Below are positions 13,697 to 61,991 of a stretch of 64,000 nt of DNA, in pieces. The notes under the pieces were generated by a model that saw nothing but the letters and a program-made list of their open reading frames with translations, searched no databases and had not been told where the DNA came from. The DNA comes from Eledone cirrhosa. Lineage: Eukaryota. The stretch spans positions 22,196,001-22,260,000 of the forward strand of contig OZ024764.1 of NCBI GenBank assembly GCA_964016885.1. Reading direction: 5' to 3'. Position 1 is the stretch's first letter. Every line of letters begins with the position of its first letter. The position numbers were made by a program, and so were the translations under genes.

Positions 13697-14560
13697 ATGT
13701 CGAAAAATATAGTAAAATCACCATTCCACTGTGATATCTGTGGTAAATCATTCTCTCGTAGTAATCACCTAACTACTCACAAACGTATTCATACAGGAAA
13801 GAAACCATATCACTGTGATATCTGTGGTAAATCATTCTCTCAGAGTAATACCTTAACTGATCACAAACATATTCATACAGGAGAGAAGCCATATCACTGT
13901 GATATCTGTAACAAATCATTCAGTCACAGTAGTAGCGTCAGTGTTCACAAACAAATTCATACAGGAGAGAAGCCACATCACTGTGATATCTGTGGTAAAT
14001 CATTCTCTCGTAGTAGTCACCTAATTACTCACAAACGTATTCATACAGGAGAGAAGCCACATCACTGTGATTTCTGTGGTAAATCATTCAGTCTCAGTTA
14101 TACCTTAACTACTCACAAACGTATTCATACAGGAGAGAAGCCATATCACTGTGATATCTGTGGTAAATTATTCAGTCACAGTAATACCTTAACTATCCAC
14201 AAACGTACTCATACAGGAGAGAAGCCATATCACTGTGACATCTGTGGTAATTCATTCTCTCATAGTAATCACCTAATGATTCACAAACGTATTCATACAG
14301 GAGAGAAACCATATTACTGTGATATTTGTGGGAAAGCATTCTCTCAAAAATACAACCTAACTACTCACAAACGTAGTCATACAGGAGAAAAACCATATCA
14401 TTGTGATATCTGTGGTAATTCATTCTCTCAAAGTTATACCTTAACTACCCACAAACGTACTCATACAGGAGAGAAGCCATATCACTGTGACATCTGTGAT
14501 AAATCATTCTCTCGAAGTGGTAACTTAACCAGGCATGTGCGTATTCATACAGAAGTTTAG
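13697..14560 (+). CDS. C2H2 zinc-finger protein A, 287 aa, 10 tandem fingers, no recognisable effector domain
   Basis: Intact [13 protein letters not shown] + 10 x 28-aa C-x2-C-x12-H-x3-H with TGEKPY-type linkers, ends HVRIHTEV*. Helix -1..+6: [70 protein letters not shown]. Confidence 0.93.
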
Positions 14561-14830
14561 CTGTATCAATATCAAACTCATTACATCATACTACAACAAC
14601 AACAACAAATGTGTAGATCCATCATCCTTGCTAAAACTGGGGTCAACCTTGTAGGTTTTACCTATGACAGGGATCATAAACACCAGGTTTCTATTTTTGA
14701 AGCCGTGTTTGAAGATTTTGTGTAAATTAAAGTTTTTCACATTAAACTTTGATTTATTATACTTTAACTGGTAAGATATATATTTGTATTTTTAGTAAAG
14801 GTTTGGGAACTTCTGTAATTTAAACCTGCC

Positions 14831-14836
14831 AATAAA
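14831..14836 (+). terminator. Putative polyadenylation signal of ZNF A
   Basis: AATAAA ~270 nt after the stop, followed by GT-rich TTTTGTTGTTGTT; equivalents at 33061-33066 (ATTAAA variant, B), 48168-48173 (C), 62254-62259 (D). Confidence 0.6.
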
Positions 14837-15750
14837 ATGAAAACTTTTGTTGTTGTTAGTCAGACATTGATATTAATTCTATTGTCCTGTACATTGTCTC
14901 AAATATCACAGATTAAACAGATTTTAACAATAACAACAGAAATCAATAACTTGTAAGCCTAATATCTAGCTTCCATTTTAACTATTTGATATTGTTGTTC
15001 CCCTCCTGCCTCTTCAGGTCTTTTAGATTTCAACTTCTATCTACTGTACTATTCCATCACCAAGGCAACATTCATCTGGCTGGCAGCTTACATCAACTCC
15101 AGATCTCATCAGTGGTTCACAACAGGCTGTCTGAAAGAAACTTCCAGATATTTTCTATGTCATAGCTATCAATCTCCTCCTCCTTATCATATGTATCATG
15201 TAGAACATCTCTGAATTTATATTTAACAGGGAGATCTTTTACTATCCCTACCCTTTTCTCTAGGTTGTCTTGTACCTCTCTCACAGTCCCTCTAGATCTT
15301 ATATTTAACGGAGATATTTTACTGTCCTTACCCTTTTCTCTAGGTTGTCTTGTACCACTCTCACAGTCCCAGTAGATCTTATATTTAACAGGGAGATCTT
15401 TTACTCTCCAACCCTTCTATCTCCAGATAGTCTTGTATCTGTCAGTCCCTCTAGATCTTACACCTAGTATCTAGTCTATGTTGAGTGGTACGTCCTTCTC
15501 CAGTAAAGGAGTTAATATTCCCAACCATCTGTCTATCCTGTTTTCTGATGAGAATGAAGTCAATCTAGTTTATCTCTTCACCTGATTGAAGTAACTAGAT
15601 CAAGTAACTAGATGTTTTCCTGTAAGTTAGTGTTGCAGTGTTTGTGTTACCATGTAAGGTTTATATCTCTTAATATAGAGATGTAGTAAAGTTTTCACTG
15701 TTGTATCTCTACTTTCTAAATATCTTAATAATGTTTCTCTACTATTTCAG

Positions 15751-58800: not shown

Positions 58801-60748
58801 TACCCAAAATCTGCATTGTGTACATTATAGAATTTATGCCAGTTCCTTTTCTACATATTGAACAAGGCCATTTCCCTGATGGAATGACAGTTTTGTCCTC
58901 ACTAAACTCCAGTTTTGTTCCTCTCTAAACTCCATGCCTACCCTCACTTTACTGACAGCCTCTCTATACATAGCTTGCACTGTCCTCACAAACTATTCCT
59001 CTACACCTAGTTTCCTTAGGGACCACCAGATGACAGATTGGGGTACTCTATCAAAGGCCTTCTCTAGGTCAACAAAAACTAAGTATAGTGGTTTTCTTCT
59101 TTAAGAACCTCTCTTGTAGTTGTCTCACTGAGAAGAGGGCATCTGATTGACTCTTTCTCTAAGTTGCGCTAGTATTCTTTCTGTCACTTTCATAACCTGA
59201 TCCATCAGTTTTATACCCCTATAATTACTCCCCTCCAGAACATCCCCTTTACCTTTACCTCAATTTATGAGAATACTGCTGCACCAGTCTTTGGGTATGA
59301 CACCACCATATATAGCTTGATTAATGATGCATTCAACCAGTTTAATTCCTACTTCTCTTGATGCCTTCAGCATCTCAGCAACTATCCCCAACAGTCCAGC
59401 GGACTTACCATTTTTCATTTCCTTAATTGGACCCTATAGTCATCAATCTCAATAGCTGGTCCTTCTGTCAGGTCTACTGAATGTAGCTCCCCTCCTATTC
59501 ATTCTCCACATTCATCAGTCTCTCATAATGACATTTCCAGGCCTTCTTTTTTTTGAGAATCAGTGACACTAAGTGCACCAACATCCTGATTTACACTGAC
59601 ACACTGCCTTGCAATGTGGATCACCGCACATCTCTGATCTCCCCATCGCAGGACATTGGCAAACCTTCTACTCTCAGCTTCCCTGCATGTTAAGTAGGCC
59701 TGACATCTAGCTTCTCTCTTAGCGGCTGTGAATCGGTCTCTACCCCTACCATTTTTCCAAGCCTTTTGTCTCTAATGGCTCTATCTACCGTGCTGTTCCA
59801 CCACCAGGCCACCCTTTGTCTGGTTGGAGCTCTGCTCCAGCCACAAGTTTCTTCAGTAACCTGCAGTAAGTTGTCACGTAAGAAATTCCAGTTATCATCT
59901 ATGGCATATGACTCTAAATCGTCTTCTTTTTCGTCATACACATCTTGAAGGGCTTTCCTAAATTTATATTTTAGTGAAAGGTCTTTTAGTTTCCAGTCCT
60001 TCCTTTTTCAAACCTTCTTGTATGTCTCTCTTTGTCTCTTGCTTACTGAGATGTCACTAACGACTAACCTATGTTGGGGGGTTACATTGTTCCCTGGGGT
60101 ATGCCTTAGTATTTGACACCATCTGTCTCTCTTGCTACTTAACTAGCAAGAAGTCAATCTGTCTCATGTGCTCACCTGATTGGTAGGTTATTAGGTGGTT
60201 GGTAGGTTTCTTGAAGTGTTGCAAATGGTTAGTTCACTTGCATCACAAAATACAAGAAGCCTCACTCTTTCTTCGTTTCTTGAGCCATAACCATGACCAC
60301 CATGTACCCCAGTATATCCATCCTGGAACTGTCCAACATGACCATTGAAGTCCCCTGCTATTATAACTAGGTCTCAAAATCTCATAGATTTGATATTATG
60401 AGAGATAAAGCATTTACTGTGAAAATATAATAGTATATATACAGTAATGTGAATACTAAAGGGTTAATCTGATGTCACTAATAACTACTTTTATCTGTCA
60501 GTTTATTCTAATGTCACTAATAACTACTTTTATCAGTCAGTTTAATCTAATGTCACTAATAACTACTTTTATCAGTCAGTATAATCTACTACCACTAATA
60601 ACTAACCTATGTTAGTCAGCACATTCTTCACCAAAGAAGGCCTTAGTATTTATTACAGTCCATTTATCAATATAGAAATATTATAGGAAATTTGTACTGA
60701 TGTATTACAAGTTTCTGACTATCTTATAATGTTCTTTTATTATTTCAG
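55866..60748 (+). other. Putative 5'UTR intron of ZNF D
   Basis: Donor 55866, acceptor AG 60747-60748. Confidence 0.55.
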
Positions 60749-60959
60749 AATACCAGAGGACATTGGCATTAAAGAGCACGTTACATCAGACATATCCTCA
60801 ACATTAACCATTTCTAATGAAATACACTAACCATCATTTTCAAATAATTTTGAAAACACTCAACACTTTGAAGTGATTTAGTAATATAACTAAATTTCTC
60901 AGTATTAAACTGTGAATTATGTGAGAAACTGAGGTGATTGATATCTTTTAGTAGGAGAT

Positions 60960-61991
60960 ATGTCGAAAAATATAGTAAAATCACCATTCCACTGTGATAT
61001 CTGTGGTAAATCATTCTCTCGTAGTAATCACCTAACTACTCACAAACGTATTCATACAGGAGAGAAGCCATATCACTGTGATATCTGTGGTAAATCATTC
61101 AGTCGCAGTAATACCTTAACTAATCACAAACATATTCATACAGGAGAGAAACCATATCACTGTGATATCTGTGGTAAAACGTTCTCTCAGAGTAATCACC
61201 TAACTACTCACAAACGTATTCATACAGGAGAGAAACCATATCACTGTGATATCTGTGGTAAAACGTTCTCTAAAAACAATAACCTAACTACTCACAAACG
61301 TATTCATACAGGAGAGAACCCATATCATTGTGATATCTGTGGTAAATCATTCCCTTGTAGTCATCACCTTACTATTCACAAACGTATTCACACAGGAGAG
61401 AAGCCATATCAATGTGATATCTGTGATAAATCATTCAGTGACAGTAGTAGCTTCAGAGTTCACAAACAAATTCATACAGGAGAGAAGCCACATCACTGTG
61501 ACATCTGTGGTAAATCATTCAGTCACAGAAATAACTTAATTACCCACAAACGTATTCATACAGGAGAGAAGCCATATCACTGTGACATCTGTGGTAAATC
61601 ATTCTCTCGTAGTAATCACCTAACTACTCACAAACTTATTCATACAGGAGAGAAGCCATATCACTGTGACATCTGTGGTAAATCATTCTCTCGTAGTAAT
61701 CACCTAACTACTCACAAACGTATTCATACAGGAGAGAAGCCATATCAATGTGACATCTGTGATAAATCATTCTCTCATAGTAATCGCCTAACTACTCACA
61801 AACGTATTCATACAGGAGAGAAGAAATATCACTGTGACATCTGTGGTAATTCATTCTCTCATAGTCATAACCTAACTACTCACAAACGTACTCATACAGG
61901 AGAGAAGCCATATCATTGTGACATCTGTGGTAAATCATTCTCCCAAAGTGGTACCTTAACCAAGCATGTGCGTATTCATACAGAAGTTTAG
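60960..61991 (+). CDS. C2H2 zinc-finger protein D, 343 aa, 12 fingers
   Basis: Intact ORF. Helices: [56 protein letters not shown] x2, [21 protein letters not shown]. Confidence 0.93.

Follow-up and report, generated by a model that had tools for sequence, protein, structure and literature searches.

The repertoire of C2H2 zinc-finger genes in cephalopods is very large. In a window of 64,000 nucleotides of Eledone cirrhosa (contig OZ024764.1), the whole stretch of DNA analysed here, four finger genes, termed A to D, lie in tandem, each within a duplicated unit of 14 to 18 kb. In a preliminary description of this sequence, the finger arrays were proposed to be rewritten while the surrounding duplicated DNA had barely changed. 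The reading frames, all on the forward strand, were confirmed to be intact at 13697..14560 (A), 31762..32793 (B), 46873..47904 (C) and 60960..61991 (D). Gene A encodes a 9-residue leader followed by 10 fingers and no other domain, while B, C and D have 12 fingers each. The array of B consists mostly of repeats of two finger types and is the most homogeneous of the four; that of C contains an internal two-finger duplication (C3-4 and C5-6) and that of D a one-finger duplication (D8 and D9). The identical ends reported for these frames were also found, the initial 27 nt and the last seven residues being the same in A to D, as were intact ligands, with both cysteines and both histidines kept in 46 of 46 fingers. 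None of the 46 units carries an indel, and the frame is kept throughout. Each protein contains at least three C-x2-C-x12-H-x3-H fingers with TGEKP-type linkers, the pattern of tandem (Kruppel-type) C2H2 proteins, and matched PF00096 and PF13465 far over the Pfam cut-off. Neither a SET nor a KRAB domain was present among the best 25 Pfam families per protein, and a frame of 9 residues plus fingers leaves no space for KRAB; A to D are neither PRDM9 nor KRAB genes. Sequence-specific DNA binding by their products is predicted from the fold family. Taking the contact codons as helix positions −1, 2, 3 and 6 of each 84-bp finger unit, 34 distinct contact-residue signatures were found in the 46 fingers.

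Substitution distances in the flanks were 0.020 to 0.039 (15 sub-unit pairs, with tandem repeats masked), and those in the 540 nt located 3′ of the stop codon were 0.025 to 0.047. The flanks had been described as differing by scattered substitutions and indels; substitutions of 2.0 to 3.9% agreed with this, but kb-scale insertions, a deletion of ∼520 nt and other large events were also present. The deletion, located in the 5′ UTR, is common to B and D, the corresponding segment (13128..13640, forward strand) being kept in A and also in C (about 46220-46815). Despite this common deletion, the upstream regions of B and D were among the most distant pairs (0.038). An extra sub-unit of 6.3 kb (21574..27987, forward strand) is a copy of about 15313-21572 without a finger exon and has its junction within an 80-bp repeat. 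Informative sites in the flanks change partners in runs (of 53 neighbouring pairs, 43 were compatible, versus 24.3 after shuffling; p=5e-5), indicating that flanks recombine between units and, hence, are not a clean clock.

Promoter-like motifs and the 3′ end of a non-coding exon 1 were located for gene D at 55762..55865 (forward strand) with a spliced contig from run X5, and the copy of A has its end at 8302 and that of C at 40087; no exon-1 copy for gene B was detected between A and B. Exon 1 joins the finger exon 211 to 817 nt upstream of the start codon. The finger exon of B begins with a splice acceptor and a short 5′ UTR part (31551..31761, forward strand), with the same type in D from 60749; A and C have a long type (from 12963 and 46056, respectively). 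The 3′ UTR of B extends to a splice donor 207 nt past the stop codon (32794..33000, forward strand), and further donors are present at 14770, 48108 and 62194. A relic zinc-finger exon comprising a leader and half a finger (49331..49690, forward strand; other copies start at 543, 15751, 22010, 34204 and 62935) follows directly on the donor of the 3′ UTR in one contig from run X5. Exon 1 was joined to the acceptor, with an A/C-type leader, in one contig of this run, the kind of which is not on record; the spliced contig suggests transcription at the level of the family rather than of each gene.

A broken hAT-type transposase, similar to FAM200/ZBED5/GTF2IRD2, is located on the reverse strand at 52320..53823, with other copies at 3192-5017, 18707-20207, 24531-26317 and 36374-37766. 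Five copies accompany four genes because the extra sub-unit lacks a finger exon. None of three hAT fragments gave a Pfam match, and the family assignment rests on another comparison. The intactness of the finger genes had been set against the frameshifts of these neighbours. Ligands and frames are intact, but the hAT breaks are partly common to copies, indicating that the element was probably dead prior to duplication of the units and, hence, is not a clean control for integrity of the reading frames.

Internal fingers at matching positions differed by 13 to 18% (0.133 to 0.175), with distances of 0.38 to 0.46 at contact codons and 0.09 to 0.13 at other codons. The reported concentration of variation in the helix was borne out by a mean finger-to-finger distance of 0.28 in helix codons versus 0.09 to 0.10 outside. 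Synonymous distances were ∼0.19 to 0.22 among fingers versus 0.02 to 0.04 in flanks, such that the finger pool is, at synonymous sites, 5 to 6 times older than the flank split; synonymous distance within contact codons was also high (0.40 to 0.42 by path counting). Private synonymous changes (6 versus 9.7 expected) and private non-contact replacements (21 versus 25.6 expected) agreed with the flank clock, indicating that the excess of the arrays over the flanks is not due to a faster substitution rate. The proposal that new specificities are generated faster than neutral flank divergence is, hence, not supported in that form. No private changes were detected at ligands or Phe (8.6 expected; p=0.0002), in accord with functional constraint on the genes. 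Non-ligand scaffold sites take new replacements at a near-neutral rate, indicating that the constraint per finger is weak.

Comparison of finger order with shuffled order gave a better fit in only two of six gene pairs, and weakly (p=0.036 and 0.050), and was no better in the other four. The statement that internal fingers cannot be paired one-to-one was upheld for pairing in order; still, for 29 of 38 another gene contains a relative that differs at no more than 6 of 78 nt. The first and last fingers are positionally fixed, their nearest relatives being their counterparts in the other genes. Of the 38 internal fingers, 20 had their nearest relative in a different gene, with five ties; 32 of 45 edges in a spanning tree connected different genes, and a tree of 38 fingers contained 18 changes of gene label, counted without a shuffled control. 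Distance within a gene (0.166) equalled that between genes (0.170). No difference separates B2 from B10 in 78 nt, and C8 is 1 nt from each of them; fingers 1 to 3 nt apart occupy non-matching positions across genes (B2/B10-C8-D10 and C9-D11). Fingers C8-C9 (47488..47655, forward strand) recur two positions further in D as D10-D11 (61743-61910) with 6 differences in 162 nt. Identical tracts out of register measure up to 83 nt when two genes are compared and up to 91 nt inside one gene. Finger D6 (61407..61490, forward strand) is a mosaic whose front half equals B6 and whose helix and rear are of the A3/C2 type, with a contig loose end at 32238; its junction was also present in contigs of the independent runs X1 and X5. 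These near-identical fingers at differing positions across genes sustain the suggested minisatellite-like turnover of 84-bp units. A PHI-type test for recombination inside fingers was significant in one of six settings. As many fingers are close to the pool consensus, some near matches across genes are expected without recent transfer. The comparison covers four genes from one sequence, and finger donors may lie outside the window. Contigs of four public runs aligned to gene B break within the array, into array pieces of 48 to 104 nt.

Codon models, which presume one tree, an assumption broken by gene conversion as stated for PRDM9 in PMC5519329, gave an omega of 2.4 to 6.1 at −1, 2, 3 and 6 versus about 1.3 to 1.5 at the interleaved positions +1, +4 and +5. 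Contact omega was 2.7 to 3.8 (LRT 21 to 39), or 3.2 (LRT 17.5) with the helix given a separate rate, and among the recent paralogues A to D dN/dS exceeded 1 at the contact positions, the mark of adaptive clusters of the KRAB-zinc-finger-like kind. A deeper local genealogy of the helix was rejected, a separate helix rate not being favoured (LRT 0.25). A ratio as high as that observed arose in <2% of neutral simulations with conversion (9 of 1351, 3 of 667, 3 of 448 and 3 of 944), the last set with 8-fold CpG mutation, such that CpG hypermutation did not suffice in simulation as the source of contact diversity; without partial conversion the ratio was reached in 0.9% of 2693 runs. These simulations misfit the data in predicting 3.8 private non-contact replacements versus 21 observed. 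The models and simulations together support an excess of amino-acid change at the contact positions. There were 17 shared contact replacement alleles versus a neutral mean of 4.6, and 17 was reached in 0 of 1852 runs (at printed precision); 17 of 20 contact variants were common to several fingers. Private amino acids numbered 10 at the four contact codons versus 25 at the 22 other codons. End fingers had 8 contact replacements where the 3′ flank predicts 1.3 (p=6e-5), an excess that reached only p=0.063 against synonymous changes of those same fingers. Nucleotides private to single fingers were not in excess at contact codons (4 in 9.6 sites versus 7 synonymous in 16.5), but an omega of 3.5 predicts just 2.7, such that this test lacks power.

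We consider it probable that the arrays of A to D are mosaics of a shared pool of 84-bp fingers that recombine out of register, both inside a gene copy and from copy to copy, and that selection keeps variety at contact codons. Such recombination is the most likely source of the mosaics, and selection for contact variety is likely. The tandem repeats that make up a finger exon would allow any finger to pair with any other, in its own gene or a neighbour, during unequal crossing-over or gene conversion. Flanks would pair only in register and be homogenised while arrays were re-dealt; each exchange would preserve the frame and yield a new helix order, with ligand losses being purged by purifying selection and many residues at −1, 2, 3 and 6 being maintained by diversifying selection. 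The new DNA-binding specificities attributed to these arrays are a prediction from their sequences. Reshuffling itself requires no selection, and neutral minisatellite turnover, with unconstrained contact codons and selection keeping only frame and ligands, would account for the near-neutral scaffold replacement rate, the lack of excess among private contact changes and the high synonymous distance inside contact codons too. This alternative is unlikely given an omega raised at contact but not at interleaved positions, the ratio arising in <2% of runs with conversion and CpG bias, and a number of shared contact replacement alleles (17 versus 4.6) that no run reached.

It is less likely still that the arrays are ancient and static, with flanks and gene ends reset by conversion and no exchange of fingers between genes. 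Fingers 1 to 3 nt apart occupy different positions across genes and there is no grouping by gene, in label changes or in distance, although recombination of flanks between units, an old finger pool at synonymous sites and a deletion common to B and D with upstream regions 0.038 apart are all compatible with old paralogues. The strong form of the preliminary description, a race of point substitutions in which contact positions outpaced the neutral flank rate after duplication, has a very low probability. Non-contact codons differ by 0.09 to 0.13, three times the flank, which contact-site selection cannot yield, and most contact variants are shared among fingers; the contact replacements of the positionally orthologous end fingers and the private amino acids at contact codons are in its favour. 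Least probable of all is an assembly artefact, with reads of many similar units mixed within the repeats: no contig of the four runs spans the array, and short, deep X1 flank contigs hint at extra copies, depth not being copy number, but all units are in frame and free of indels, and contigs from public runs carry the junctions of both D6 and the B/D deletion, as well as an exact B5 piece of 67 nt. 

Among the matches listed, both gene ends had highest identity (82% and 79%) to Octopus vulgaris P0220, while vertebrate arrays were on top by E-value in a whole-protein search. No exact match to any of the four proteins was present in the protein collection, and no orthologue with the same ends was found among the matches listed, the pattern over 235 proteins returning one unrelated match; a further homologue search was assessed by identity only (best 79%). 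The C2H2 expansion of coleoid cephalopods likewise consists of clustered, tandemly duplicated genes, for which the available parts of the reports cover gene counts, clusters, dates and expression (PMC9068888, PMC9795677); no analysis of finger-level turnover or selection in cephalopods was found in the literature searched. Vertebrate poly-ZF/KRAB-ZFP clusters are, like A to D, described in transposon-rich segmental duplications with finger gain and loss among paralogues, and positive selection at −1, 3 and 6 and strain-specific fingerprint arrays are reported (PMC2604467, PMC5363842, PMC12575710). Unlike KRAB-ZFPs, A to D lack KRAB or another effector domain. Paralogue arrays in PMC2604467 are alignable, with conversion in few genes, chicken excepted, whereas A to D lose order at 2 to 4% unit distance and their fingers move between genes.

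PRDM9, to which the arrays had been likened, is described as an array of 84-bp units that recombine between fingers, with end fingers isolated in part and diversity focused on contact residues (PMC2794550, PMC5519329). The likeness holds for turnover of 84-bp units, but A to D are far less homogenised than human or mouse PRDM9, within-array identity being 0.81 to 0.86 rather than near complete. Their contact share of amino-acid diversity was 0.28 to 0.35 (−1, 3, 6), or 0.37 to 0.44 with +2, versus 0.687 in human and 0.910 in mouse PRDM9, and overlaps the lower values among the PRDM9s tabulated. PRDM9 also has SET, KRAB and SSXRD domains, which A to D lack, and exchange is across several genes in A to D versus alleles of one gene in PRDM9. 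Insect ZF271-like/APEZ genes (PMC6444547) and zebrafish FiNZ-ZNFs (PMC10547256) are likewise tandem expansions specific to a lineage, in which the number of fingers varies. ZF271-like proteins, as A to D, are described with fingers as the sole domain (PMC6444547), whereas the 9-residue leader of A to D is not FiNZ-like. Positive selection at contact residues of FiNZ clades is reported, and octopus finger motifs are predicted to be enriched in transposons (PMC10547256); comparison of array turnover with flanks or tracing of fingers between genes does not feature in the available portions of these two reports. Every ingredient of the process is already published for vertebrate or insect clusters.

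What has been published on other families of tandem fingers makes transposons the foremost guess for the predicted targets of A to D. A tentative extension is that the cluster is a multi-gene finger library, a PRDM9-like generator of diversity distributed among many genes without effector domains, with exchange among neighbours that may be fast enough for individual-specific repertoires in an arms race with transposons. The window provides a dated case, with units 2 to 4% apart and arrays without a common order. If this were true across individuals, recombination among neighbours would be the main source of new binding specificities; in such clusters, orthology at the gene level and dN/dS over whole genes would be misleading, and the four defined proteins would allow the idea of a transposon arms race to be tested in a mollusc.

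Six-frame translation revealed four tandem finger-only C2H2 genes on the + strand, with open reading frames (ORFs) at 13697-14560 (gene A, 10 fingers), 31762-32793 (B), 46873-47904 (C) and 60960-61991 (D), the last three having 12 fingers each. All four consist of a 9-residue leader, identical in DNA among the genes, followed by 84-bp finger units in which the two Cys, the two His and the core Phe were unchanged (46/46 fingers). The best 25 Pfam families per protein were finger families only, and none of the four proteins was present in an exact look-up of a protein collection. 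Among the matches listed, the highest identity to both protein ends was to Octopus proteins (82% and 79%), which points to a likely octopus origin. Self-comparison of the window indicated duplicated units of 14-18 kb, with large differences in the DNA around the ORFs that included a 5′ UTR deletion common to B and D, several-kb insertions and a further sub-unit lacking a finger exon, present as a 6.3-kb duplication (15313-21572 and 21574-27987) whose junction falls within an 80-bp tandem repeat. A LINE-type reverse-transcriptase frame, stop-free for 524 codons, lies upstream of B only (29440-31014, minus strand); 63375-64000 contains further reverse-transcriptase fragments, and an unclassified insert spans about 9581-11023. 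A 39-bp minisatellite located close upstream of each finger-exon acceptor (12718-12833, 31150-31406, 45382-45911 and 60464-60604) varies from 2.9 to 13.6 copies, indicating fast tandem-repeat turnover in these units, coding or not.

The preliminary description claimed that the finger arrays were rewritten while the flanks barely changed. This observation was borne out: flanks differed at 0.020-0.039 of aligned sites (15 pairs of sub-units, tandem repeats masked) versus 0.133-0.175 for same-position internal fingers, with values of 0.38-0.46 at the contact codons (helix positions −1, 2, 3 and 6) and 0.09-0.13 elsewhere. When fingers were aligned with their order kept, just two of the six gene pairs, A-D (p = 0.036) and C-D (p = 0.050), scored barely better than shuffled order; the other four scored no better. 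For 29 of the 38 internal fingers, another gene contained a relative that differed by at most 6 nt in 78, and for 20 the nearest relative was in another gene (5 ties). Fingers B2 and B10 have the same sequence, which differs from C8 by 1 nt, the C8-C9 pair reappears as D10-D11, and internal duplications were detected in C (C3-4/C5-6), D (D8/D9) and, as several pairs, B, the most homogeneous array. D6 is a mosaic of a B6-type front and an A3/C2-type helix, the junction of which was found in contigs of two public sequencing runs, X1 and X5. First fingers clustered across genes, as did last fingers.

Synonymous distances among fingers (0.19-0.22) were 5 to 6 times the flank value, indicating that the finger types predate the unit split. 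A value of 1.7% per lineage fitted the private changes of the internal fingers (n = 38), with 6 synonymous changes (9.7 expected) and 21 non-contact replacements (25.6 expected). Array divergence does exceed that of the flanks but without faster substitution; the arrays are most likely re-dealt rather than fast-mutating. Against re-dealing, within-finger recombination was significant in just one of six test settings and nearness to the pool consensus alone gives some cross-gene matches. Within the hAT transposase block of the flanks, 43 of 53 adjacent informative-site pairs were compatible versus 24.3 when shuffled (p = 5e-5), indicating that the flanks also recombine. In run X1, flank contigs over 31410-33410 had depths of about 1000-2400 versus 120-260 for finger-specific pieces, and other helices were present on the same scaffold; these depths and helices hint weakly at many more gene copies beyond the window.

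Two results speak for purifying selection: no private replacement of a ligand or Phe was seen versus 8.6 expected (p = 0.0002), and no ORF-breaking event was seen in the four ORFs where 5 to 7 were expected (P 0.007-0.0007, with indel rates assumed). The reported contrast with frameshifted neighbouring hAT copies held in that all of these copies are broken, but some breaks are shared.

Codon models on a tree of all 46 fingers gave a contact omega of 2.7-3.8 (LRT 21-39, three frequency settings), or 3.2 (LRT 17.5) when the helix was given a separate rate. Omega was 6.1, 2.4, 3.4 and 3.1 at −1, 2, 3 and 6, and 1.3, 1.5 and 1.4 at +1, +4 and +5. As conversion violates the single-tree assumption of these models, a tree-free ratio (contact pN/non-contact pS) was calibrated by neutral simulation. 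The ratio for internal fingers, 2.71, was attained in 0.9% of 2693 neutral runs and, in further sets, in 9/1351, 3/667, 3/448 and 3/944; with all synonymous sites in the ratio, the figures were 1.6% of 2693, 19/1351, 7/667, 6/448 and 14/944. These simulations predict too few private variants (3.8 versus 21 observed). Contact replacements in end fingers numbered 8, where the 3′ flank predicted 1.3 (p = 6e-5); relative to the synonymous changes of these fingers, the excess reached only p = 0.063. The proposal of selection for excess change at contact codons gained support, although private contact nucleotides showed no excess in an underpowered test; diversifying selection is likely, though not proven.

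Candidate non-coding first exons end at 8302, 40087 and 55865, preceded by motifs that we take to be NRF1-like and ETS-like, and finger-exon acceptors lie at 12963, 31551, 46056 and 60749. One contig of X5, a run of unrecorded kind, joins the exon-1 end exactly to the acceptor and runs on into the long A/C-type leader, supporting splicing and transcription of the family rather than of any single named copy. Between A and B (14561-31550), neither an exon-1 copy nor a promoter-like one was found, and so B may be without its own promoter; it would use exon 1 of A or another start, or be silent. In a second X5 contig, a donor 207 nt past the stop is spliced to a relic of a finger exon (33000 to 34204 in B, with equivalent sites after each gene); this relic occurs six times in the window. 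Transcripts with such a 3′ UTR intron would be predicted targets of nonsense-mediated decay. An AATAAA about 60 nt past the donor is present in A, C and D and absent from B only. The long 5′ UTR (13128-13640 in A; about 46220-46815 in C) has 10 upstream ATGs in A and 16 in C, versus 2 in the deleted form of B and D. Run X4, labelled as another organism, contains the short form as well.

In the arrays the ends are fixed, the middle is scrambled and finger types are shared between genes; the ligands are intact, and the flanks recombine. This pattern was most likely produced by unequal exchange and conversion of 84-bp units paired out of register, inside genes and between neighbours, with selection likely favouring variety at contact codons. 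As guesses, a finger-only protein might regulate by site occlusion or by recruiting cofactors through its fingers.

Vertebrate paralogues exhibit positive selection at −1, 3 and 6 and have gained and lost fingers, conversion having affected few genes except in chicken (PMC2604467); arrays of mouse KRAB clusters drift and shift and have strain-specific fingerprints (PMC5363842, PMC12575710). The A-D cluster operates similarly, yet lies outside the KRAB family. Finger homogenisation is rated very unusual outside PRDM9 (PMC2794550). Turnover in A-D is PRDM9-like, yet the genes are outside that family, and the contact share of amino-acid diversity, 0.687 in human and 0.910 in mouse PRDM9, is 0.28-0.44 in these arrays. 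Within-array identity was close to or beyond the 90th percentile in a similarity-selected set of 231 finger proteins; the arrays are intermediate in homogenisation. Other published work describes insect finger-only clusters with shuffling (PMC6444547), cephalopod C2H2 clusters (PMC9068888, PMC9795677), and octopus finger motifs predicted to be enriched in transposons, with high contact-site entropy (PMC10547256). A literature search covering few subscription papers listed no paper whose main subject was the shuffling of fingers, or selection on them, in cephalopod clusters. The A-D cluster is genuine and offers a clean example, and its novelty lies in degree and scope: finger order fully lost between 2-4% duplicates, probable exchange between genes, and effector-less proteins.
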